This document shows positions 8,419-52,897 of a stretch of 64,000 nt of DNA, in pieces. The DNA is taken from assembly GCA_964590575.1 (NCBI GenBank), contig CAZPWM010000001.1, forward strand, positions 8,832 to 72,831. The letters are read 5' to 3'. Within the stretch, counting starts at the first letter, position 1. Each line of letters begins with the position of its first letter. This stretch comes from an uncultured archaeon. GTDB lineage: Archaea > Asgardarchaeota > Thorarchaeia > Thorarchaeales > Thorarchaeaceae. A program made the translations under genes and the position numbers. The notes under the pieces were generated by a model. The model was not told the origin of the DNA and did not search any database. It was given only the letters and a program-made list of their open reading frames with translations.

Positions 8419-9456
8419 TTACCTTGAGGATTCAAGAGTCTGCAAGAAGATCTCTTGGAATTTAGAACTCTCCTCATGAATCTTTCTTGAGAGTTCTGGA
8501 CTTGCACCTGAGAGACCACATTGTGTGGATACCATCGTGTTCCTTTCCACTAGGTCCAAGTCAACACCACTTTCTTTCAACAACCGAAAACTCTGTTTCA
8601 GATTAATTGAAAGGGTTTCTAGAATCGATTTCGAGTACGAGTTATCAACATTAGGTAGTGCACCAAGGGCAAGCCCGCCCCCATGCTTCATGAACTCATT
8701 CATTTTCTTTGCCTGTTCCTGCTTAACTTCCGGAGGATATCGGACCAAATCAATATGTGCAAGTTTTGGTTTGCTTTCCCAAAGAGGATACCATCCATCG
8801 AAATTCAATATGCGCCAATCATCACAATAATGGAAAGCTGGGATAACACTCTTAGGATAGACACTATCTGTTTTGTTAATTATTTCTTTCAGAGTGAGTC
8901 CTGGTACAAGTCCTTGATTGATCATCTCAAACACGTGTCCCAAGCTTGGGTCATCTTGGCAAAGAATTAGTGAGTCACAGAACTTGCTTAGGTATTCGAC
9001 CTGACCGATCGCAATCCGTTTCATCAGTCTATGAAAGAAATAGAACATATTCTGAGTAATATGCTGTTTGCCGCTACTATCTCTAATAGTATAGCACATC
9101 GTGGCTGGTGCTGTCTGTTGCGTTTTAAAGATAGGATACATTGTTCCATCCATCATTAAATAGTGACTATGTCCGTGTTCTTTATCCAGCATCAGTGGTC
9201 CATCGTTACTTACCATCTCCCGATATGTATGAATGTCGACATCGAGAACGAAGTTCCCCTTTTCTTCAAATTCCTCCACCAAGACCGCAAACTGTCTTAT
9301 CATATCCTCTTCACGTAAGGCTGTTATACTGTACGAATATGGAAGATTCAATTTCTTCACATAATCAACAGGTATTGATGGATTTGGTTCACCTAGACTA
9401 CCCACTCCAAAGAACTGACCTGCCAAATCTTTTGGAAGGCAACTTTCCAGTTTCAA
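8419..9456 (-). CDS. Hypothetical protein, possibly cobalamin-independent methionine-synthase (MetE C-terminal)/URO-D-like fold
   Basis: 345 aa; C-terminal ...VSTQCGLSGASPEL resembles MetE-like zinc-site region; weak. Confidence 0.45.
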   Translation of the reverse strand: MKLESCLPKDLAGQFFGVGSLGEPNPSIPVDYVKKLNLPYSYSITALREEDMIRQFAVLVEEFEEKGNFVLDVDIHTYREMVSNDGPLMLDKEHGHSHYLMMDGTMYPIFKTQQTAPATMCYTIRDSSGKQHITQNMFYFFHRLMKRIAIGQVEYLSKFCDSLILCQDDPSLGHVFEMINQGLVPGLTLKEIINKTDSVYPKSVIPAFHYCDDWRILNFDGWYPLWESKPKLAHIDLVRYPPEVKQEQAKKMNEFMKHGGGLALGALPNVDNSYSKSILETLSINLKQSFRLLKESGVDLDLVERNTMVSTQCGLSGASPELSRKIHEESSKFQEIFLQTLESSR

Positions 9457-11177
9457 TCACCTCTTTTTGCTTGGCTACGTCGTCGAATGACCTTGTTGCA
9501 TGATTGAACCGCTGGGCAACCTTTACAAAGTTCAGGAACATCTTCGATAACCTGGTCCTCTCCGTAAATTAAGAACTGATCAGCAATCGAAGATTCCGCA
9601 GAAACCATCGCCTCCTCGTTTTGGCTTTTTTTCCGAACCATACATTTGTGCTTGCGAAGATTTTCACTTAGCTCAACCGAATTGCCAGATACTACGACCG
9701 CTGTTGGTCCAACTTTTCTGACAATCTGTTTCGTGAAATCTGGAATCATCATTAATGTTTCAAGGTCCTGCTCACTCTCAGTTTCAAAAAGGGTGACTTC
9801 GGATATTGTAGTGAAGGTGGTTTGAGATGTCCAATCTGTAATAGATCTAACTACATTTCTGGGAACTGGTTTACTGCTCTCTTTCTCTAGGAAGCCAAGG
9901 ATGTCATCTTCACGCAGTCCAATCTCAATCGCCTCGAAGATTGATTTATCTGAAATTTTGAACGTGCTCACTACATCTGTACGAATTGGTTCTGTCAAGA
10001 GCATTAAACGGTAAAGTTTCTGGTATTCCATTTCACTGGTGAATACAGTGAGCTCGAAGTTTGGCAACACAAAGAATGATTCTCGCATCTCAGGCTTTTC
10101 GAACGGTGTCCCCAGGAGAACGTTTTCACCAACATCTGTCAATCTAACTGCGAGAAGTTTCTTGCCACGATATGCTGCTTCAACCAATCCCAGAAGTATT
10201 GGCGTTTCAAGAGATAATTGAACTCTATCCTCGTCGACCTGAATCCATTTCAATGATTGATTCTCTATGAACAATTCACTCCTAATCCAATCCCTGAGTT
10301 CTTCAATACTGATCCAGTCTTCAGACGTACTTTCTCGAAGTCTACAAATTGCCAGATTGAGCGTGTATTCTGTAGGTTGATCAGGGGTGGCCCAGATTGC
10401 TCTTGTTCTGCCAAGTTGGGACAATAGCAGTCTACGAGCTACATTGCGATGCTCTCCTGCAAATAGAATATCTATTTTGGATGGCTGGACTTTATCTCCT
10501 TCTCCTACAGTGTAAGCTCCCATTTTGCGCGCCATCTTTTGGACTAGTTCAAATCGCTCATCGGTTTTCTTAGACATAGGTTCTTTGATGTAGTCGATTT
10601 CTCTTCTGGGAAACTCCCAGGCACTTGTGAGGTGGACCTCTCGTTTTGCTATATGTGATACAAGCAGGAGCATATCTATAATCAAAGTGTCTCGTTCATT
10701 TACGATGTCTTTGACTTTCTTTGGCTTCTCTGGTTGGGGTTGAGGTTTTGTTTCAAATAGGTCCCTTAGATGGGGGATAAAGAACTCTAGGACCTTGAAC
10801 TCTGCAACCTCTCGTCCAAATTCTGTTAATCGTGACATCATTTGTCTGATGATGATACCCTTTTTCCGAAGGTCTCTCTCCGTTTGATTCAGTTGCCCAT
10901 AACTATAGATCTTTCTGAAAGGCTTGAGTCGGTCATAGCTCATAGCTCCCCCACTAAGTGTTAAGAGTCCCAGCAGATCTTTCTCGAGTTGAGAGAATGT
11001 GGCAAATATTCTTTCCCTCTCTTCTGGCATCCTCATTTTCTCTGCGAGCATTTTGATAAGCGATGATCCAGTGTCTTTTCCTGTCACGTCAATGGACCAA
11101 TACTGACATGCAAAGAGTAAGTCTTCTCTGAGGACATGTTCAAGTTCTTTCTCTAGGGATTCTTTTGCCATTATCAT
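9453..11177 (-). CDS. Large hypothetical protein (574 aa), cytoplasmic, C-terminal CxxC...C cluster
   Basis: Long ORF, overlaps downstream gene by 4 nt (operon); no recognisable catalytic motif. Confidence 0.55.
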   Translation of the reverse strand: MIMAKESLEKELEHVLREDLLFACQYWSIDVTGKDTGSSLIKMLAEKMRMPEERERIFATFSQLEKDLLGLLTLSGGAMSYDRLKPFRKIYSYGQLNQTERDLRKKGIIIRQMMSRLTEFGREVAEFKVLEFFIPHLRDLFETKPQPQPEKPKKVKDIVNERDTLIIDMLLLVSHIAKREVHLTSAWEFPRREIDYIKEPMSKKTDERFELVQKMARKMGAYTVGEGDKVQPSKIDILFAGEHRNVARRLLLSQLGRTRAIWATPDQPTEYTLNLAICRLRESTSEDWISIEELRDWIRSELFIENQSLKWIQVDEDRVQLSLETPILLGLVEAAYRGKKLLAVRLTDVGENVLLGTPFEKPEMRESFFVLPNFELTVFTSEMEYQKLYRLMLLTEPIRTDVVSTFKISDKSIFEAIEIGLREDDILGFLEKESSKPVPRNVVRSITDWTSQTTFTTISEVTLFETESEQDLETLMMIPDFTKQIVRKVGPTAVVVSGNSVELSENLRKHKCMVRKKSQNEEAMVSAESSIADQFLIYGEDQVIEDVPELCKGCPAVQSCNKVIRRRSQAKRGD

Positions 11178-33659: not shown

Positions 33660-36271
33660 TTGCAGAAGAAAGTGGTAAGTACACTTTTGACCCTTTGTCT
33701 AATTCTCTCAAGTGTTCCTGTTCTTCTCTATGTCATGCCGATAGATGAAGTACAGCCAACAAAGATTGAACCAGTGACATTGGACTTTAACAGATTGACT
33801 GAACTTTATGGAGAGCAGATTCCAGTAGTTGTTCGTTTTAATCAAGGTCTCTCGTCTGGATTACAAGATATCATCTCATCTATGCAATTGGAATTTAGCC
33901 TCGGAAGTGCAAGTAAAAGTCACATCGGTTCGTACTATCTACTGAATGGCAATCCGGATAGTCTTCAGGCTTTGATTGATATGGGTGTTGTTGCGAAGAT
34001 TGCTCCGCAGACACATACACAATTTCTGGAAACTCCTAGAGACCTCTCAATTCCAGAAATCAATGCTGATGATGTCTGGTCGACGCTTGATGATTTGAGT
34101 AGAAACATCACAGGTCGAGATATTCTCATTGCGGATCTCGATTCAGGAGTAGATTGGCGACATCCTGACCTCTGGTTTGCTGATGGCGGCCAATACACTT
34201 GGTTTGACCATGCTGCAAACGGTCAGCTGGATAATGGAACTGATGGTATAGATCTCAACCCTGATGGAATCATTATGCCTGATGAGGCTCTGTATGTTCT
34301 TGATTTAGATCGGAATGGCATTTTCAATGTTCGATTTGAATGGGCATGGCTTGACAATGTCACTCAAAATGGATCTCCAGACATCGGTGAACCGTTCTTT
34401 GTTGTGAATGATACTTCGGGTGATGGTTTCCTTGACCTTGGAGAACCCTTGGTCATGTTGGGAACTCCTAAAACCAAGTACATCTTTGAAATGGATGGTA
34501 ATCCCTCACCAAGTCTACAGTTATGGGAGCGTGGAGTGAACCTTACATCAAGCACTCACAAAGACGACAGTCCTTATGGTGGAGGTCATGGAACCGCTGT
34601 CGCTGGAATACTATTGGGTGGACAACTTGGTTTTCGAGACTATGTTGGTGTGGCCCCTGATGCAGAGTTAATGCTGATTCGTGTTATAGGCGATCAGTTC
34701 ACGTGGATCTCAATTGAAGCAGGGCTTGCAATCGCAAACAATACGGGGGCTGATGTTATTCTTACAGAAATCGGGTCATGGACCTATCAATATCTCGATG
34801 GTAGTTCATTGGCTGAGGAAATAATTGACGATTTAGTTGCTGATGGCATTCCAGTAATCTCTCCAAGTGGGAATCTTGGAGGAAAGGACAAACACGCAAT
34901 GATCAACACAGTCCGTTTGCTCCCCATCAGATTGATTTCTTAGTTCCTACAGTAGATGGCCTTTATGTCTTTGAAGACATCACGGAGGTCTACATAACAG
35001 TCCTAACGGTTGATCCCACTGATTTCGTGGTGAGTAATTTTAGTTTGACAATTAATGGAACCACAACCTACCTTAATCCCGGAGTGGGTGAGGGTATATG
35101 GTTCCTGCAATCTAACATTATCCCTGGGGTCAATGTGCAGTCTTACATCTCTACTTCTACAAGAGGTACGAAGATGCTTGCCATCCAACTCTATGGAGCT
35201 CTTCCCACCACTCCTCCCGTCGTGCCCTACCAACTTGGCATCTCAACACCTGATGCCGCAACGATTCATGCGTATATCTCTGATGACCAGAGTGGATGGA
35301 CTGGTGGATGTGTATGGACAACCGACATGGCGGATAGTTATCATATTACATGGCCATCGACAGCAGACAGTGCAATAAGTGTCGCAAGCTATCACACAAG
35401 GAGTCTCTATGGGACAATTGGAGATCGTGCTAGCTTCTCCTCTATTGGTCCAAGGATTGATGGTTTTCCCAAACAGACTGTTGCAGCTCCTGGAGGTTAC
35501 GACATTATCTCAGACTATGCAAATGGTTCTGTTTGGGCCTCTTGGTTTAATGGTGGTGGTGCATTACCTTTTCAGCCGCAGTTTGGAACTTATCGGTTAT
35601 TTAGTGGAACAAGTGCATCAGGACCGCATGTTGCAGGAGCAGCTGCACTGCTGCTTCAAGCCAATGTTACTATTGGGGGTCAAATGAAAGCAATTTTTGA
35701 GTCCACTGCAGTAAGTGATGTGTTCACCGGGGTTGTCCCAAACGACATGTGGGGTAGTGGTAAACTGGATGTGGAGGCTGCATTAGCCTTCATCACTCCT
35801 GGTCCTGATGTTGATGGTCCAGTGATTGGGAACCATAATCGAAGCCCCTTCACGCCTAATTCTACTGAATCAGTACTGGTGAATGTTACAGTGTCAGACG
35901 CTTCTGGGGTCGACACAGTGATTCTTTCATATTACAATGGCTCAACCTGGTTCAATGTCACAATGACTTGGACTGGGTTATATTATGAAGGCACAATTCC
36001 TGCATTCCCGAATGGAACTACTATACTTTATCGTTTCTACGCAAACGACACACTTGATAACTGGTCCATGTCTGGGACATTTAGCTACACTGTTACAGAT
36101 CCTGGAACCACCACAACCACGACCACCAGTACAACCTCGACAACGGGAAGCCCGACTACGACCTCCCCTCCCCCCGAAGAACCGGATTACCTTCGATTGG
36201 CGGTGATACTAAGTGTGGTGCTTGCGTTGATAATTCTGGCAGTTGTATGTAATCGAAGGAGGTCACGATGA
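33660..36271 (+). pseudogene. Subtilisin-like (S8) surface protease, frameshifted: Asp/His/Asn in ORF 33660..34943, Ser in ORF 35027..36271
   Basis: DLDSGVD and HGTAVAG in first ORF; SGTSASGPHVAGAAALL in second; frame +2 reads through 34862..35030 joining them; Thr-rich stalk and C-terminal TM plus RRRSR. Confidence 0.6.
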
Positions 36272-45541: not shown

Positions 45542-48500
45542 ATGTACAATAGATACTTCATTCTGGCAATCTTACTCGTACCCCTTTTTCTAACTCCCAC
45601 TTCTGTGGCTGCACGAGTGGAATTGAATTCCACATTCGGTTCAGACAGACCGCTGATTGAATCCCGCCTTAGAATGGAGGTTCAATCTTCACCAAATCCT
45701 ACAAGCGCTCTTCTTGAATTCAAGAGTCCTTTGTCATCTACTGAGATCCTTAGAGCTGAAAGTTTAGGAGTCACTTTCGTGAAGCGTGGATCCTCGATTG
45801 TCAACGTTGGCCGGATTTATTCTGTAGAGATAAACAATATCGTTTCTTTGGAAGCCCTATCTGAAATAGGTCTAATCAGAGCCACTTCTGGAAAAAAACA
45901 ATACATACCCGCTCTCTCATCCTCAGTGCCTGCGATTCGAGCTGATGATGTTTGGACGAATCTGAACAAGAACGGTGGGGCAGTCAATGGTTCCGGCGTA
46001 ACGGTTGCAGTTCTAGATACTGGCGCTCTTTGGACACATCCTAGCTTTTGGCGTGCATCACCCGGCGAGTACAAGACCATTAACAATGGGTCTGACTACT
46101 ATGTAGATCTGGATAATGACACGGTGCCAGATTCTACCGAAATTATTCGTTTTGTGGGTGGAGGCGGACCTGACTTTTCCTACGCATTTAACTACATGTA
46201 CATTAATGCAGATGGGATCGCAGGGTTTAGCTATGCATCTGGAGACCGCTGGATTGGTGGAATTGATGCAAATGATGATACGGTCATAACTTTGGGAGTT
46301 GAGAATGTAGTTCTCTTAGACGTATCAAAAGTCGCAGTTTTCTACGACCAAGAACACTCCAACGTGTATGTGAGAGATGTCAATCTCACTCAAGCGGTGT
46401 CCATTGGTGATTATGATGGTCATGGAACACATGTAGCTTCCACTATTGCCGGTGGTCAAGTTGGAATGACATCCTATGTCGGTGTTGCCCCTGGCGCAGA
46501 TTTGATAATTATCAGAAGTGTTCTCCAATCTGCTGACATCTTGGATGGTATAGCCTTTGCAATTGAGAATGATGCGGACATTATCAACATGTCTTTCTCT
46601 TCATATCTGGGATTTTTAGATGGGACTGATTTGGAAGACCTTGCGGTATCAGAAGCGTTCCTGAGGTATGGAGTATTGACAACTGCAGCTGCTGGAAATC
46701 TTGGTAATAAAAACAAACACGCTCGATTCTCTGCGGCACAAGGGTCTTCGGGTTCTGCTTTGATGAGAGTAGATGATGTTGTTATATCAAGAGCACCATT
46801 TCTGAGCTTGTTGTGGCACTCGTCAGACAATGATGAGCATGTTATACTAACACCACCCTCCGGTAATCCAATAGACCTTGGAGCCTTCTCATCTATTGCA
46901 CAGCAATCCTGGGCACTTGAAGATGAAAATCTTGCAGCCTATATTTTTGCGGATGTCAGTATACGAGGGCTCAACAATGTGATAATCCAAGTTTCCACAA
47001 ATGACCATATGTGGGCGAATGGTGTTTGGAATGTAACAGTCACTAATGGTTCGGGTGACCTCATTTGGATAGACGGATTCGCATGGGATGGACGGTGGGA
47101 AACAACCCACTTAACTTTCCAGACCGCTCTTGATTCAGGAAGAAGTATCAGTTCCCCTGCTACTGCTGATCTTGCAGTGGCAGTTACTGCCTACAGTGAA
47201 GTAAGTTCAGGAATTATGAGCGAATCTAGTAAGGGTCCCAGGGTTGATGGCTCTCCAAAACCAACTGTGGCTGCCCCTGGTGATAATATAGCTGCAGCTC
47301 TGGCTAGTCTTACTAGCCTATGGACTTCAAAGGATGGGACCAGTATGGCCTCGCCGCACGTTGCGGGAGTGCTAGCACTTATTCGCCAAGCCTCAGGCAA
47401 GAACTCTGCATGGTTGGACTACTCTGCCTTGGTCAATGGTGCTGGAGGTCAGGCTTCACATTATGAAACAGCCTCGCCCTCATGGGGCCATGGTCTCACT
47501 GATGCTCTGTGGTCAGTTGTTCAAGTTTTAGATTCTCCAGGTATGGATGGTTCTACAATGTCCGATTGGTACGGTGTGAGTGAACTATTCGGAGATGCAA
47601 CAAATCTCTCAGTCAATGGAGGACATGATATCATTTCTGCCAAGTCATTCTTGGACAATGATACTATTGGAATAGCAATAACCATGAGGGCCGCACCTGA
47701 TTTACAGGGTACGGATGTTCTCAGCATTGAGTGGGATAATGATTCAAATGTGGGTACTGGGAGGAACGGAGCTGACATCGTTGTCAATATTACTGGAGGG
47801 TCTGCAGATGTCTATGAATGGAATGGTAGTTCCTATGTAGCTTCATCTCTAGTTTCACAATGGTGGACTGATTCGACAGCAGTGATCCTTCGGCTTGATG
47901 GTATTACTCCTGGCGTTCGTGGAATTATATCTATGAGTACACATAACTCTACGATGAGCAATATCGACCAAGCTGGTCCTGGGACGCTCACTGATATGTT
48001 GCCCCCTGTCATGGAAGACCTCTGGATGCAGTTTAATGATGGTTCAATGATTATTCACCTAGCCACGAGAGATCGCGACACTTCACAAGAACTTCGAAAC
48101 ATTGCGTGGAGTGTTGTCAACGGGCCTCTTGCAACTCTCAACTCATCATCACGAGTAGGAGAAAGCGATTACATAATCACTGTTCCTGAGAATCTGATTA
48201 CTTCTGATTATCTCAATAGCCTTTCATTGAATATCACATCAGAGAGCTTTACTCTTATCTTACCACTCGTTTTGCTTTCAACCCAAATCGGTCCACAACT
48301 AGTGTTTTCAATCGCTACGCTCAACCAAGATGTTGTTCGAGTTGGATTCCTGTTGAATGATTTAATTGCTGGCGAATTGGTGTTGGAGGGTTTTACTCTC
48401 GCTTCCTTGGTCTACGTAGCATTCCATTCTGAATCTGGGTCTTGGCTCAATTTCACTCTTTCAAGTAGTACTGGTCATTACGACTTTGAGATATCCCCCT

Positions 48501-48691
48501 CATACTTCCAACTAGGGTCACATGAGGTATACGCAATCGCTATAGGGCAGGTAGTACCTGGAACATCTCTGAATTTCGCCACTCTAACAGTGGTACAGGA
48601 TTACACTGTGCTAGCTGTAGGGGCTGCAATCCTTATCGTGGGTTGTGGTATAATTGTGATTATGCGAAGACGTAGAGGTGACATAGGCTGA
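45542..48691 (+). CDS. Subtilisin-like (S8) serine protease, secreted/surface-anchored (1049 aa)
   Basis: Signal peptide; VAVLDTGA (Asp), HGTHVASTIAGG (His), AAGNLGN (Asn), GTSMASPHVAGVLALI (Ser); C-terminal TM plus RRRRG. Confidence 0.85.
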   Translation: MYNRYFILAILLVPLFLTPTSVAARVELNSTFGSDRPLIESRLRMEVQSSPNPTSALLEFKSPLSSTEILRAESLGVTFVKRGSSIVNVGRIYSVEINNIVSLEALSEIGLIRATSGKKQYIPALSSSVPAIRADDVWTNLNKNGGAVNGSGVTVAVLDTGALWTHPSFWRASPGEYKTINNGSDYYVDLDNDTVPDSTEIIRFVGGGGPDFSYAFNYMYINADGIAGFSYASGDRWIGGIDANDDTVITLGVENVVLLDVSKVAVFYDQEHSNVYVRDVNLTQAVSIGDYDGHGTHVASTIAGGQVGMTSYVGVAPGADLIIIRSVLQSADILDGIAFAIENDADIINMSFSSYLGFLDGTDLEDLAVSEAFLRYGVLTTAAAGNLGNKNKHARFSAAQGSSGSALMRVDDVVISRAPFLSLLWHSSDNDEHVILTPPSGNPIDLGAFSSIAQQSWALEDENLAAYIFADVSIRGLNNVIIQVSTNDHMWANGVWNVTVTNGSGDLIWIDGFAWDGRWETTHLTFQTALDSGRSISSPATADLAVAVTAYSEVSSGIMSESSKGPRVDGSPKPTVAAPGDNIAAALASLTSLWTSKDGTSMASPHVAGVLALIRQASGKNSAWLDYSALVNGAGGQASHYETASPSWGHGLTDALWSVVQVLDSPGMDGSTMSDWYGVSELFGDATNLSVNGGHDIISAKSFLDNDTIGIAITMRAAPDLQGTDVLSIEWDNDSNVGTGRNGADIVVNITGGSADVYEWNGSSYVASSLVSQWWTDSTAVILRLDGITPGVRGIISMSTHNSTMSNIDQAGPGTLTDMLPPVMEDLWMQFNDGSMIIHLATRDRDTSQELRNIAWSVVNGPLATLNSSSRVGESDYIITVPENLITSDYLNSLSLNITSESFTLILPLVLLSTQIGPQLVFSIATLNQDVVRVGFLLNDLIAGELVLEGFTLASLVYVAFHSESGSWLNFTLSSSTGHYDFEISPSYFQLGSHEVYAIAIGQVVPGTSLNFATLTVVQDYTVLAVGAAILIVGCGIIVIMRRRRGDIG

Positions 48692-48747
48692 AGATCATAA
48701 TCATCGGATATGGTCCTGGTGGTGCTGCAGCTGCAGTCGCTGCTCGG

Positions 48748-49968
48748 ATGTTCAATACGCAGTCTGAAATTCAAATTATCACTGAGGAAACATTAGAATC
48801 TCACAGAAAACCAGGCGCCTCGATGGCACTTGAGTTTCCTGATACTTCAGATCTCCGGATAGACGATTGGTCGTTTGATGCTCTCTCAAAGAAACGAATC
48901 GCCACCATCACAGGAACTCAGGTGACGGGAGGAGATTCCACCTCCAAAGAAATCTATATCAAAGGATCCCATGGCGAGAAGACTTTGAGCTATGACAGAC
49001 TCATCTTAGCTACTGGAGGCATTCCTGCTTTGCCGAATATACCCGGTACGGATTTAGCAGGTGTCTTCACAATTCAGACGATGGCTGATACAAGTGAGAT
49101 TGGAAACCAGTTGTCTGGGATGAAATCGATTATAGTTGTTGGCGCTGGTTTCAGCGGTCTCGAAACTGCTGAGAGGCTTCTTTCAATTGGAAAAGATGTT
49201 CACCTCCTTATACGATCCCGACTTATGCGAAAACAATTGGAGGAACCAATGAGCCTGGAACTTCAGTCAAGAATTCCAGACAGACTGAATGTACACGTTG
49301 GTAAATCCCCTTCATCCGTAATTGGGGATAAAAAAGTGCAAGGAATAACTGTTGGTTCAGAAACAATTCCTGTCGATGCGATTCTTTTCATGACCGGTGT
49401 CCGACCTAATACCGAGCTTGCTAAGAAACTTGGTGTCAAGATTGGCCCCTTGGGAGGAATAGTAGTTGATGAAGCGATGAAGACATCTGTGAATGATATC
49501 TTCGCAGTCGGCGACTGCGTTGAGATGAAAGATTCGCTTACTGGAAAGCCACTTCTTCTTCCAATTGGTAGTGTAGCCGCTCGTGCAGGTCGACAAGCAG
49601 GAGTTACCGCAGCAGGTGGCTCCAAGATATATGATGATACACTACGTCGCCTACAGTATGACCATATCTTCAATACTGATATTGTTGTAGTCGGTCATTC
49701 AACCACAACTGCTACCGAGATGGGCTTGAAAACTGATGTTCAATATTTTGAGGATAGCACAGAATTTGCGAAAGTAGCTTTAGTCACAACTGATGATGGA
49801 CGCCTTGTTGGAGGTCAGGTGATATCTTCACGCATGGGTGCTCGGCTTGGTTATGAAATACTTGAGCGAGTTGAGTCTGGAGCCACCCTAAGAGAAAAAC
49901 CCCTTCTCAAACCACGTCACGAAAGATTGCGTGAGTATCTAGAATCTACTTATGGTCCTATTCGATAG
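48748..49968 (+). CDS. FAD-dependent pyridine nucleotide-disulfide oxidoreductase (N-terminus probably begins upstream at a non-canonical start)
   Basis: Second Rossmann IIVVGAGFSGLE, C-terminal FAVGDC; first Rossmann motif KIIIIGYGPGGAAAAVAAR encoded in-frame at 48691..48747. Confidence 0.8.
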   Translation: MFNTQSEIQIITEETLESHRKPGASMALEFPDTSDLRIDDWSFDALSKKRIATITGTQVTGGDSTSKEIYIKGSHGEKTLSYDRLILATGGIPALPNIPGTDLAGVFTIQTMADTSEIGNQLSGMKSIIVVGAGFSGLETAERLLSIGKDVHLLIRSRLMRKQLEEPMSLELQSRIPDRLNVHVGKSPSSVIGDKKVQGITVGSETIPVDAILFMTGVRPNTELAKKLGVKIGPLGGIVVDEAMKTSVNDIFAVGDCVEMKDSLTGKPLLLPIGSVAARAGRQAGVTAAGGSKIYDDTLRRLQYDHIFNTDIVVVGHSTTTATEMGLKTDVQYFEDSTEFAKVALVTTDDGRLVGGQVISSRMGARLGYEILERVESGATLREKPLLKPRHERLREYLESTYGPIR

Positions 49969-52897
49969 ATGGCGGTGGGAGTTCCCACTCATCATCATCT
50001 GCTTTCTGTGTGTTGAGGTATCGTCGAGGTGGTTTTTGTCGACCTTGAATCCTGGTTAATATGACATATCCGAGGCCAATTCCAACTACTCCCAAGAGTG
50101 AAAAGATAACTGTCAATACCAAGGCATCATCCGCCGCATAAACTGGAACTAGTATGGTTTTCGTAAAGATCCTCACATTCCCTGCTAAGTCGGTAGCTAC
50201 AACTTGGATAGAAAAGAATCCTCCACTATTGAAAATAAAGGAAGTTGAAAATCTATAACCGAATTCCTCGAGGATAGCACCAGTCAGGTTCACTCCAGCT
50301 GGTCCAATAATACTCATTGAAACACTCTCAAGATCGTCGTCGAAAATGTATGCTGACACATTTGCTTCTTGACCAAACTCACCGATGTTAAGTTTAACAT
50401 CAAATATCCTTGGAGCATCTGGTATGATAATAGTAGCTAGATTTCTCAAGAGTCTAAGATTATCTGCACCTACACTGATTGCATCAAATAGAATATCATC
50501 ATACAAAGTCGATCCGTCTGATATTGCGAAGACCTGTCCACGACCATATTCAGCTGTAGCAACAATGGCATGAGTCCTACCAGTATCTTCCCAGAGCAGA
50601 CCTCTCGCATTAGATATACTTGAGTTCACATGAAGTGTACTGCCTTGGACGACATAGAGGTTGTTCACACCATCCATTAATGGATCATTCTCTACGTAGC
50701 CGCTGTAGTTGGCACCGTATACCAATCCATATCCTTCAAATCCAAATCCTATTGCCCTCCTTTCGCACTGGATGCCAAACGGTCCGAGAATCGCATTGTA
50801 ATCATCGAAAGCAAATGATGCCTCTCCAGTAACCTGATTAAATGATTCTGAAAAAACAAGCAGTGTCCCTCCGTTCTCAACAAACGCATGAATCGCTGTT
50901 ATTTCACTCACAGAGTATGACGTTTCTGTGTCCATGATTGTGAACACATCTGCACCTGAAATTGTGCTCAAATCAATATAGCTTCTAGAGAAGTCTTCAG
51001 AATTGCCAAACTCTGACACTACCATTCCTTTCTCTCTAAGATATTCCGTAAAGTATCCATAGTATGAGGGGTCATCAATATCCCCGTCTGGGCCACTGGA
51101 ATGATGCTCCATGTCCACCATCATTCTCCCGCCAAAAATTGTGACGGTGTATCTGATTTCAATTGATGCAACAACATCACTTCCTTGTGTCAAATTGAGA
51201 TGACCTGTATATACTCCAGCAGCAGAAAGAGGTACGCCTTCAGGTATTACGAGTTCAACCTCGAAGTATGAATATCCTGTTGTTACTATAAGCTCTTCAA
51301 CATCTGTTTCGATAAATTGACTTGCATTCCCTGAGAGTGTGATGTTCACAAGACCTATTGATTGTGTCGAGATGACAGCAACATTTTGAGGGGGGCGATT
51401 ATCGCCAACAATAAGGACCTGTGAGCTTCCTGGTAGGGTTGGAAGGCTCCGTGGTGTCATCAGAGTTATGTCTCGTGCTGAGCTATCCAGAAGCTGAGAT
51501 GCTTTAGATACATTTGCCAAACCCCACCCCTGACTCATCGGGTCATCTCCTAGATCTTGTGCTGTGCTCATCAGAGCTACCTTTGCCTCCACTGGTGTAA
51601 GAGCCGAATGCCTCTGTGTTAGTAGAGCAATCAATCCCGCAATCATCGGTGTTGAAGCAGAGGTTCCGGACCAACGAGTATAACTGGTGCCAAACTGACT
51701 ACTGTTATAAGCTGGATATTCAAGAGCGTTGACATTGTTTCCTCTTCCTGAAACCACCTGATTTCCTGGTGCTACAACATCTGGTTTTGCAGTGTATCCT
51801 AGTGGATCTGAAGATGTTCGCAACACAGGGCCAACACTACTAAATGCTACAACACCAGTGTCACCAAATGAAGACCCAACTGTGACTGCTTCCTCTGCTA
51901 CCCCTGGAGAATTGATTGTAAATGCTGCTGGTCCTGAATTCCCAGCAGCAACAACAACAGAAATCCCGGCTGCAACTGCATTTTTAATCTCACTTATCGA
52001 TGGTTCAACAATGTACAAGCTGTCGACCCATTCTCCTCCCAGACTGATGCTTATGACATCCACATTTTGTTCGATTGCAAACTCAATACCTTGGGCTATT
52101 ACATCATCCTCACCAGATCCTGAAGCATCAAGCACTTTAATCGCTAATAGATTTGCACCAGGAGCAATTCCCATAAGACTACCATTGCTTGCAGTTCCAT
52201 CGCCTACCGCATTCCATGCGCATGCTGTTCCATGTCCATTGTCATCATAAGCAACAATACCGTTTCCAGGATTCATATCATCTTGACCATCAATCAAGTC
52301 CTTGAATCCAATCAAACGATTTTGAAGGTCCGGATGGCCACTCCAAACGCCACTGTCCAACACTGCGATTGTTGTACCTGTGCCATTGTAACCCTCAGCC
52401 CACATCAGGTCTGCACTAAGAATTGAATCGAAGTGAACATATCCGTTCCCGTTTTCAGCTAGAACGTATTTCTCTTGAGGTATAACTTCGTCAAGTAGCT
52501 GCCGTTCCTGATTCATCTTTATCGACTCCATGTTGGATACTTGAGAAAGAGCTTGGACTTCATCAACTCTGAGTGATAACGAAACCATAGGAATCAAGTG
52601 AAATGCATATCTTATTTGGACACTGTCAATACCTGCTAAGCTTATTCTTTCTACCATCTCATCAGTGGATGTTCCTTCTGGGAATTTCACTATGACTGAG
52701 ATGCGACTGTCAGATTCCATCGTAGATAATGCTACAGCAATGTCGGAATCAACGAGAGCATTCTTGTGTTCTGTTTCTTCTGTTACAGCTCCTGAATAAA
52801 TGGCGATAGGTGTGAATAGGAGAGTCAGAAGTACGACAGCCACAAAACGTCGATAGTATAATTTGTGGATAGCTGGCATGTTCAAATGTCCTTCCAA
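49958..52897 (-). CDS. Subtilisin-like (S8) serine protease, surface-anchored (979 aa; real start possibly Met at 52879)
   Basis: Signal peptide, TTIAVLDSGV, HGTACAW, AAGNSGP, WSGTSASTPMIAGLIALL; C-terminal TM then charged tail. Confidence 0.85.
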   Translation of the reverse strand: MEGHLNMPAIHKLYYRRFVAVVLLTLLFTPIAIYSGAVTEETEHKNALVDSDIAVALSTMESDSRISVIVKFPEGTSTDEMVERISLAGIDSVQIRYAFHLIPMVSLSLRVDEVQALSQVSNMESIKMNQERQLLDEVIPQEKYVLAENGNGYVHFDSILSADLMWAEGYNGTGTTIAVLDSGVWSGHPDLQNRLIGFKDLIDGQDDMNPGNGIVAYDDNGHGTACAWNAVGDGTASNGSLMGIAPGANLLAIKVLDASGSGEDDVIAQGIEFAIEQNVDVISISLGGEWVDSLYIVEPSISEIKNAVAAGISVVVAAGNSGPAAFTINSPGVAEEAVTVGSSFGDTGVVAFSSVGPVLRTSSDPLGYTAKPDVVAPGNQVVSGRGNNVNALEYPAYNSSQFGTSYTRWSGTSASTPMIAGLIALLTQRHSALTPVEAKVALMSTAQDLGDDPMSQGWGLANVSKASQLLDSSARDITLMTPRSLPTLPGSSQVLIVGDNRPPQNVAVISTQSIGLVNITLSGNASQFIETDVEELIVTTGYSYFEVELVIPEGVPLSAAGVYTGHLNLTQGSDVVASIEIRYTVTIFGGRMMVDMEHHSSGPDGDIDDPSYYGYFTEYLREKGMVVSEFGNSEDFSRSYIDLSTISGADVFTIMDTETSYSVSEITAIHAFVENGGTLLVFSESFNQVTGEASFAFDDYNAILGPFGIQCERRAIGFGFEGYGLVYGANYSGYVENDPLMDGVNNLYVVQGSTLHVNSSISNARGLLWEDTGRTHAIVATAEYGRGQVFAISDGSTLYDDILFDAISVGADNLRLLRNLATIIIPDAPRIFDVKLNIGEFGQEANVSAYIFDDDLESVSMSIIGPAGVNLTGAILEEFGYRFSTSFIFNSGGFFSIQVVATDLAGNVRIFTKTILVPVYAADDALVLTVIFSLLGVVGIGLGYVILTRIQGRQKPPRRYLNTQKADDDEWELPPPSIE

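Follow-up and report, generated by a model that had tools for sequence, protein, structure and literature searches.

NCBI translation table 11 allows CTG, ATT, ATC and ATA as start codons, the classic case being the AUU start of infC in Escherichia coli. Such starts are thus known in bacteria, whereas for archaea there is hardly any record of CUG or AUU starts. Here we describe a gene junction in a 64,000-nt window (the whole stretch of DNA analysed; all coordinates below refer to it) of contig CAZPWM010000001.1 (assembly GCA_964590575.1), from an uncultured archaeon of the Thorarchaeaceae. At this junction, the gene for a predicted FAD/NAD(P)-dependent oxidoreductase, which follows a protease gene, probably starts with CTG. 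The junction shares with the bacterial non-canonical starts a near-cognate codon that mismatches the initiator anticodon at one position, a good Shine-Dalgarno (SD) motif at the right spacing and a fixed position that is retained. It differs from them in belonging to an Asgard archaeon, with initiation machinery of the eukaryotic type (aIF1, aIF1A and aIF2), and in that five different codons occupy the start position in different parts of the lineage; no counterpart of the autoregulatory logic of infC is evident. Two things are notable: the occurrence of a probable near-cognate start in an Asgard archaeon and the five-codon allelic series at one junction.

In both archaea and bacteria, stop/start overlaps that follow intragenic SD motifs mediate termination-reinitiation (PMC6728339). 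Like the ATGA, GTGA and TTGA junctions of Huber et al. (2019, PMC6728339), the present one has a co-directional gene pair, a 4-nt overlap, a nearby intragenic SD motif and a conserved arrangement. In contrast to those systems, translation would restart at CTG (at ATT in a sister clade, mostly with a 10-nt overlap), the pair encodes a secreted protease and a cytoplasmic flavoprotein with no obvious heteromeric complex, and the coupling is one that we infer. Near-cognate initiation in an archaeon has a parallel in Haloferax volcanii, in which ~30% of the putative alternative initiation sites found by ribosome profiling (Ribo-seq) were near-cognate and were set aside by the authors (Gelsinger et al. 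2020, PMC7261190). Those sites may be false positives, and most of them are alternative or internal, whereas the CTG described here is the sole possible start of a conserved enzyme, with support that is comparative and not experimental. SD motifs were reported to be rare in Lokiarchaea (PMC12993045), but this thorarchaeotal junction clearly has one. Its geometry (GAGGTGA and a spacing of 6 nt) resembles that of a strong natural start, the aEF1A site of Pyrococcus abyssi, which consists of GGAGGUGA, 5 nt and AUG (PMC6237735).

The reading frame upstream of the first ATG

The features of the junction are as follows.

45542..48691, + strand: upstream S8 (subtilase) protease gene, 1049 aa (Pfam Peptidase_S8, 6.6e-35), also found upstream in the orthologous loci
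48675..48681, + strand: SD-like motif GAGGTGA, located within the protease gene and separated from CTG 48688 by 6 nt (CATAGG)
48679..48681, + strand: in-frame TGA that closes the oxidoreductase frame on its upstream side, with a TAG two codons earlier
48688..48690, + strand: CTG, the putative initiation codon of the oxidoreductase, at the position of the orthologs' ATG, GTG or TTG and in agreement with their length of 426 aa
48689..48691, + strand: TGA stop of the protease gene (from the list of open reading frames), overlapping the putative start as CTGA
48688..49968, + strand: revised coding sequence of the predicted FAD/NAD(P)-dependent oxidoreductase (Pyr_redox_2 superfamily), 426 codons and a TAG stop
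48706..48723, + strand: GYGPGG, the first GxGxxG FAD-binding motif (residues 7-12), upstream of the first ATG
48748..48750, + strand: first ATG (Met21), at which the public 406-aa annotation (P0001) starts; an internal methionine, common but not universal in the orthologs

The oxidoreductase frame lies at -1 relative to the protease frame. It is closed by TAG 48673..48675 and TGA 48679..48681 and is open from 48682, where it reads CAT AGG CTG(48688) AAG ATC ATA ATC ATC GGA TAT GGT CCT GGT GGT and continues GCT GCA GCT GCA GTC GCT GCT CGG up to ATG(48748). No ATG, GTG or TTG occurs in this frame between 48682 and 48747; the initial annotation had described the stretch between TGA 48679 and ATG 48748 in the same way and was right in both coordinates and sequence, except that it counted 19 codons before the ATG where there are 20 from the CTG. 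The 20 codons at 48688..48747 encode LKIIIIGYGPGGAAAAVAAR. Translation upstream of and into the oxidoreductase gives *R*HRLKIIIIGYGPGG, and translation of 48673..48800 gives *R*HRLKIIIIGYGPGGAAAAVAARMFNTQ... (asterisks, stops). The protease ends in a hydrophobic segment and an RRRRGDIG tail, the codons of which hold the ribosome-binding motif of the next gene, and its stop codon shares 4 nt with the putative start (CTGA, 48688..48691).

By sequence comparison, the 20 codons before the ATG are part of the enzyme domain, well beyond what chance would produce, because (i) their addition raises the match to Pfam Pyr_redox_2 (PF07992; gathering cut-off 26.1 bits) by 22 bits, from 158.6 to 181 bits, and moves its beginning from profile position 57 to position 2, and (ii) solved CoA-disulfide reductase (CoADR) and NADH oxidase chains in the PDB align with the product from residue 2 onwards. 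The product started at the CTG covers positions 2-278 of the 291 in the profile. GYGPGG, which aligns to the N-terminal GxGxxG of the CoADR chains, is contained in the protein only when translation begins 5' of the first ATG. The motif is identical in all 43 orthologous loci with the junction and in every full-length N-terminus among the orthologs listed. A product starting at Met21 would be devoid of the first Rossmann strand and of the glycine loop. That a GxGxxG motif is encoded upstream of the first ATG, as noted initially, is thus borne out by both the Pfam and the PDB alignments.

Start codons at the orthologous junctions

A protein search gave 756 hits in all, amounting to several hundred relatives, of which the best 120 were listed. 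The source-named ones among these 120 belong to Thorarchaeota and, singly, to Sifarchaeia or Promethearchaeota, all of them Asgard archaea. Some 100 of the best 120 are 425-427 aa long and begin with M/V/L-K-I-[IV]-I-[IV]-GYGPGG; almost all of the thorarchaeotal ones have 426 aa, which is also the length counted from CTG 48688. DNA was retrieved for 47 loci, 43 of which contain the junction, and the codon at the homologous position was read in each. Among the distinct sequences it is ATG in 12, GTG in 4, TTG in 10, CTG in 2 and ATT in 6 (nine loci). Nearly all of the orthologous loci have an SD-like motif within the codons for the RRRRG tail of the protease, 5-6 nt before the start, and in most of them an in-frame stop occurs 0-7 codons upstream of the start. 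The stop/start overlap of the NTGA type was found in 24 of the 34 distinct loci; in eight loci of the ATT clade, an overlap of 5 or 10 nt ending in TAG takes its place.

Because of the ortholog N-termini and the junction DNA, the start can be placed at exactly 48688 by comparison, which also gives a precise position to the non-canonical start that the initial annotation had proposed to overlap the protease TGA. Orthologs do not begin at the methionine of 48748: the few gene calls that do so are truncations, by gene callers, of genes with TTG, CTG or ATT starts. N-terminally truncated public calls (403-407 aa) were seen for L038-L041 (P0019), L042 (P0044) and L043-L047 (P0067, P0078 and P0088). 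The 406-aa orthologs of the P0019 cluster were considered as further cases of non-canonical starts and rejected, as TTG is present and the gene caller truncated them. Some gene callers took an internal ATG despite a TTG start, and none of them was able to call CTG or ATT.

The ATT codon was found in nine loci from different samples (L007, L018, L027, L028 and L043-L047), in which six distinct sequences read ATT AGA ATA... at the start position. An in-frame stop lies 0-2 codons upstream in 6 of the 9. Of the other three, L007 and L028 each carry a TTG in the same frame 14 codons upstream, within the protease gene, and in L043 the 42 codons that are open upstream include no canonical one. In L007, Met21 is replaced by Arg, and the next canonical codon is found only 45 codons downstream. 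Synonymous divergence (dS) within the clade reaches 1.2-1.4, and the ratio of nonsynonymous to synonymous rates (omega) is ~0.1 both over the entire gene and over codons 2-20; of these 19 codons, 10 vary only synonymously and 3 vary in the amino acid. Since a high dS is here combined with an omega of ~0.1, ATT is, on this comparative evidence, a long-serving start of a functional gene. The same G-to-T change that created the ATT altered the protease stop from TGA to TTA, and the protease is two codons longer, ending at a TAG, in 6 of the 8 distinct ATT junctions (all but L046/L047). The locus L012, which starts with ATG, is nested within or next to the ATT clade; therefore, either a reversion or two independent origins of ATT have to be assumed.

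The nearest relatives of the window, L036/L037 (91% amino acid identity) and L038-41 (87%), carry TTG, and their junctions are gaplessly colinear with that of the window (...cgtagaggtgacattggTTGaagatcataatcatcgga... in L036 and ...cgtagaggtgacataggCTGaagatcataatcatcgga... in the window), colinearity with L036 extending over the protease tail IMRRRRGDIG and its stop. As the nearest relatives have TTG, the CTG of the window is derived from it by a T-to-C transition, which leaves the protease residue unchanged (GGT to GGC). The same colinearity, including the protease tail, rules out an indel error that hides an upstream ATG, GTG or TTG. Of the sequencing error that had been offered initially as an alternative, only a miscall of T as C is therefore left, and we weigh it below. 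A second contig, L042 (an ENA assembly, 80% identity), has CTG at the same position. In neighbour-joining bootstraps, the window grouped with L036 in 298 of 300 replicates and both with L038 in 299 of 300, whereas window and L042 grouped together in 0 of 300. Two independent changes from TTG to CTG are the most parsimonious history.

Selection on the gene was assessed by branch-averaged comparisons, which are blind to a very recent event, so that the CTG mutation itself is not dated by them. The Nei-Gojobori omega between the window and L036 is 0.11, with 5 synonymous differences and 1 nonsynonymous difference in codons 2-20. With L038 as the polarising sequence, the window branch has 31 synonymous and 10 nonsynonymous changes, all ten of them conservative, and the TTG sister branch has 43 and 9; for the L042 branch the numbers are ~64 and 19. 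The two CTG sequences, window and L042, differ by 13 synonymous and 2 nonsynonymous changes in codons 2-20. The N-terminal codons are thus still under purifying selection in both the CTG and the ATT lineages (omega ~0.1), with no sign of decay.

Probable initiation at the CTG and competing explanations

GAGGTGA, at its 6-nt spacing, shares with one other motif the longest anti-SD match (7 nt) that is correctly spaced before a candidate start in the long open reading frames chosen from the window, the anti-SD being assumed to be the generic archaeal AUCACCUCCU. With this generic sequence, which may not be that of the host, the SD duplex at the window junction is predicted at -11.5 kcal/mol. On the same assumption, the duplex averages -7.8 kcal/mol before ATG starts and -10.7 to -11.6 kcal/mol before GTG, TTG, CTG and ATT starts, and L012, with its ATG, has -5.8 kcal/mol as against -10.1 to -12.1 kcal/mol in its ATT relatives. 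The comparison, which ignores phylogeny and depends on the assumed anti-SD, suggests that weakness of the start codon is offset by strength of the SD motif across the orthologs. No stable RNA structure was predicted over the junction (z = +0.87), and a hairpin sequestering the start was rejected as a basis for coupling.

We propose that the 3' end of the 16S rRNA would pair with GAGGTGA and hold there either ribosomes leaving the co-transcribed protease gene or fresh small subunits. The pairing would put the codon 6 nt downstream into the P site, and the initiator Met-tRNA would read the near-cognate CUG with one mismatch at the first position, giving the N-terminus M-K-I-I-I-I-G-Y-G-P-G-G; the peptide expected from such a start is MKIIIIGYGPGGAAAAVAAR. 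The overlap of the protease TGA with the CTG makes it probable that initiation is coupled to protease termination (termination-reinitiation). The change from T to C probably lowered expression without abolishing it. We put the probability of functional near-cognate initiation at CTG 48688, assisted by the SD motif and probably coupled to protease termination, at roughly two-thirds. The codon occupies the site homologous to the ortholog starts and has a normal SD spacing, with residues that the enzyme requires encoded upstream of the first canonical start. As for coupling, stop and start overlap by 4 nt, and the upstream gene contains an SD motif shortly before the putative restart codon.

Several points weigh against initiation at the CTG. 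Reviews of archaeal initiation accept only AUG, GUG and UUG (PMC7531240; PMC4705826), and aIF1 destabilises complexes on non-AUG (AUU) mRNA in vitro (PMC4705826; PMC6237735). An Rfam scan of the window for rRNA detected no RNA families, and the anti-SD was therefore borrowed from other archaea. The protein N-terminus is placed at the CTG by comparison alone. Exact-product look-ups with the oxidoreductase and both flanking proteases returned no replicate of the junction in an independent assembly. Each of the two CTG cases is one contig at a tip of the tree, and either may therefore be a recent mutation not yet purged or a base-call error. We also surveyed all of the 16 other open reading frames of the window with at least 8 open codons before the first canonical start, translating them from stop to stop. 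In 0 of the 16 did a Pfam domain reach 5' of that start, in a scan that sees only genes with a Pfam domain near the N-terminus. Pervasive non-canonical starts in the window were rejected on this basis, and the oxidoreductase is a singular case within it.

It is improbable, in our judgement, that the organism really has TTG, with the C at 48688 due to an error in base calling or in the consensus, or to a minority variant of the population that the assembler fixed. TTG is indeed what the closest relatives have, the window is part of a metagenome-assembled contig without a replicate by the above look-ups, and an S8 protease paralogue at 33660..36271 is split by a frameshift that is possibly an assembly error. 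Nevertheless, substitution errors are rare in assembled consensus sequences and 48688 is not in a homopolymer; moreover, the CTG is independently present in the unrelated assembly L042, and the ATT, replicated in nine contigs from different samples, indicates that such states exist in nature. We consider it similarly unlikely that the start was lost by a recent mutation, leaving a gene that is unproductive, or yields only a defective Met21 product without the FAD motif, and is bound to become a pseudogene. Both CTG cases are indeed tip singletons, to which branch-averaged omega is insensitive if the event was very recent, and CUG should initiate very poorly: with reporters in E. coli, it reaches ~1% or less of the AUG level. 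Against such a loss, the frame is intact over 426 codons, with only conservative replacements on the window branch and an omega of ~0.1; the same change occurred in a second lineage (L042) with an intact and constrained frame; and in the ATT clade a weak near-cognate start at this position has proved compatible with long-term function.

Initiation at one of the ATH codons just downstream (ATC 48694, ATA 48697, ATC 48700 or 48703) is quite unlikely. These codons are near-cognate too, a related clade uses ATT, and a product begun at codons 3-6 would keep GYGPGG; but they would lie 12-21 nt from the SD motif, where the conserved distance is 5-6 nt, the orthologs all have their start at the counterpart of 48688, and the Rossmann fold would have a shorter beta-strand 1. 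We give hardly any credence to a fusion of protease and oxidoreductase by -1 ribosomal frameshifting or by recoding of the TGA. The two genes overlap and the frames stand in a -1 relation, but GAC ATA GGC TGA contains no slippery heptamer, TAG 48673 and TGA 48679 close the oxidoreductase frame just upstream, RNA structure at the junction is not unusual, and the start codons found here in the orthologs are ordinary ones. A frameshift fusion was rejected for want of a slippery site and of structure and in view of these ordinary starts, as was read-through or recoding of TGA 48679 towards an upstream start, since TAG 48673 is immediately upstream with no canonical codon between. Even taken together, the ATH starts and the fusion are very improbable.

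A more far-reaching reading concerns the lineage as a whole. Thorarchaeota may genuinely initiate at CUG and AUU, given a strong SD motif and a stop/start overlap, and the start codon may act as an evolutionary dial of expression, with ATG combined with a weak SD motif and GTG, TTG, CTG or ATT with a strong one; we regard this as a possible reading, though not the likelier one. Archaeal start selection relies on factors of the eukaryotic type, and one junction in an Asgard lineage shows ATG, GTG, TTG, CTG and ATT, the last of these retained over near-saturating synonymous divergence. The loci thus offer a natural allelic series for asking how SD strength, termination-reinitiation and the stringency of aIF1 limit near-cognate initiation in archaea. 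For annotation, the consequence is that the deposited protein (406 aa) and several of its orthologs (403-407 aa) lack the FAD-binding motif in their annotated form, since ATG, GTG and TTG are the only starts that gene callers accept; such truncated models mislead the prediction of both function and structure.

The enzyme and the rest of the window

The remaining features of the gene and its surroundings are the following.

49141..49158, + strand: GAGFSG, the second GxGxxG motif (residues 152-157), in the NAD(P)H-binding domain (Pfam Pyr_redox at residues 148-222)
49958..52897, - strand: convergent S8 protease/DUF4350 gene, the 3' end of which overlaps that of the oxidoreductase by 11 nt (49958..49968)

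The best PDB and NCBIfam matches of the oxidoreductase are CoADR and NADH oxidase. The enzyme resembles the group of CoADR, NADH oxidase and NADH peroxidase (CoADR/Nox/Npx) in its two Rossmann GxGxxG motifs, the second in a domain matched by Pfam Pyr_redox at 4.1e-12, and in overall colinearity. Nevertheless, that group has a redox-active cysteine (SxxxC, ~residue 42), which is missing here: the SHAPCG of 3kd9/4fx9 is replaced by SHRKPGAS (48799..48816), and the sole cysteine of the protein is C277, in a GDC motif. The orthologs P0002-P0120 have SH[RKQ]KPG[AS] in place of SHAPCG, the redox-active cysteine being absent in all of them. The scores stay far short of every NCBIfam equivalog cut-off, with 177 bits against 579 for TIGR03385 and 137 against 600 for NOXase_Strep. 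Because the cysteine is absent and the scores are far below these cut-offs, the JGI label 'NADH oxidase (H2O2-forming)' is unproven and doubtful. The product is best described as a predicted Asgard-specific FAD/NAD(P)-dependent oxidoreductase of the Pyr_redox_2 superfamily.

In the orthologous loci, the oxidoreductase gene always lies between two S8 protease genes. The order of a membrane-anchored S8 protease, the oxidoreductase and the convergent S8 protease/DUF4350 gene is conserved among Thorarchaeota, being the same in L036, L038, L043 and L044.

Two further observations concern other parts of the window. At 9463..9448 on the - strand, a second junction reads GAGGTGA-TTGAAA-CTG, in which the TGA of the upstream gene overlaps TTG 9456 (TTGA). 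The SD motif abuts this TTG without a spacer; two codons on, CTG 9450 stands 6 nt from the motif, just as CTG 48688 does from its own. Which codon starts the gene is ambiguous, the canonical TTG being present. The S8 protease paralogue at 33660..36271 (+ strand), mentioned above, is split over two frames and represents either a pseudogene or an assembly indel; the frameshift is thus a flaw either of the assembly or of the genome. The open reading frame 33660..34943 matches positions 1-154 of the Peptidase_S8 profile, and the remainder (profile positions 160-273) is found in the frame of 34844..36271. In a tblastn search with the intact paralogue, 33828-34916 aligned in one frame and 35345-35494 in another.

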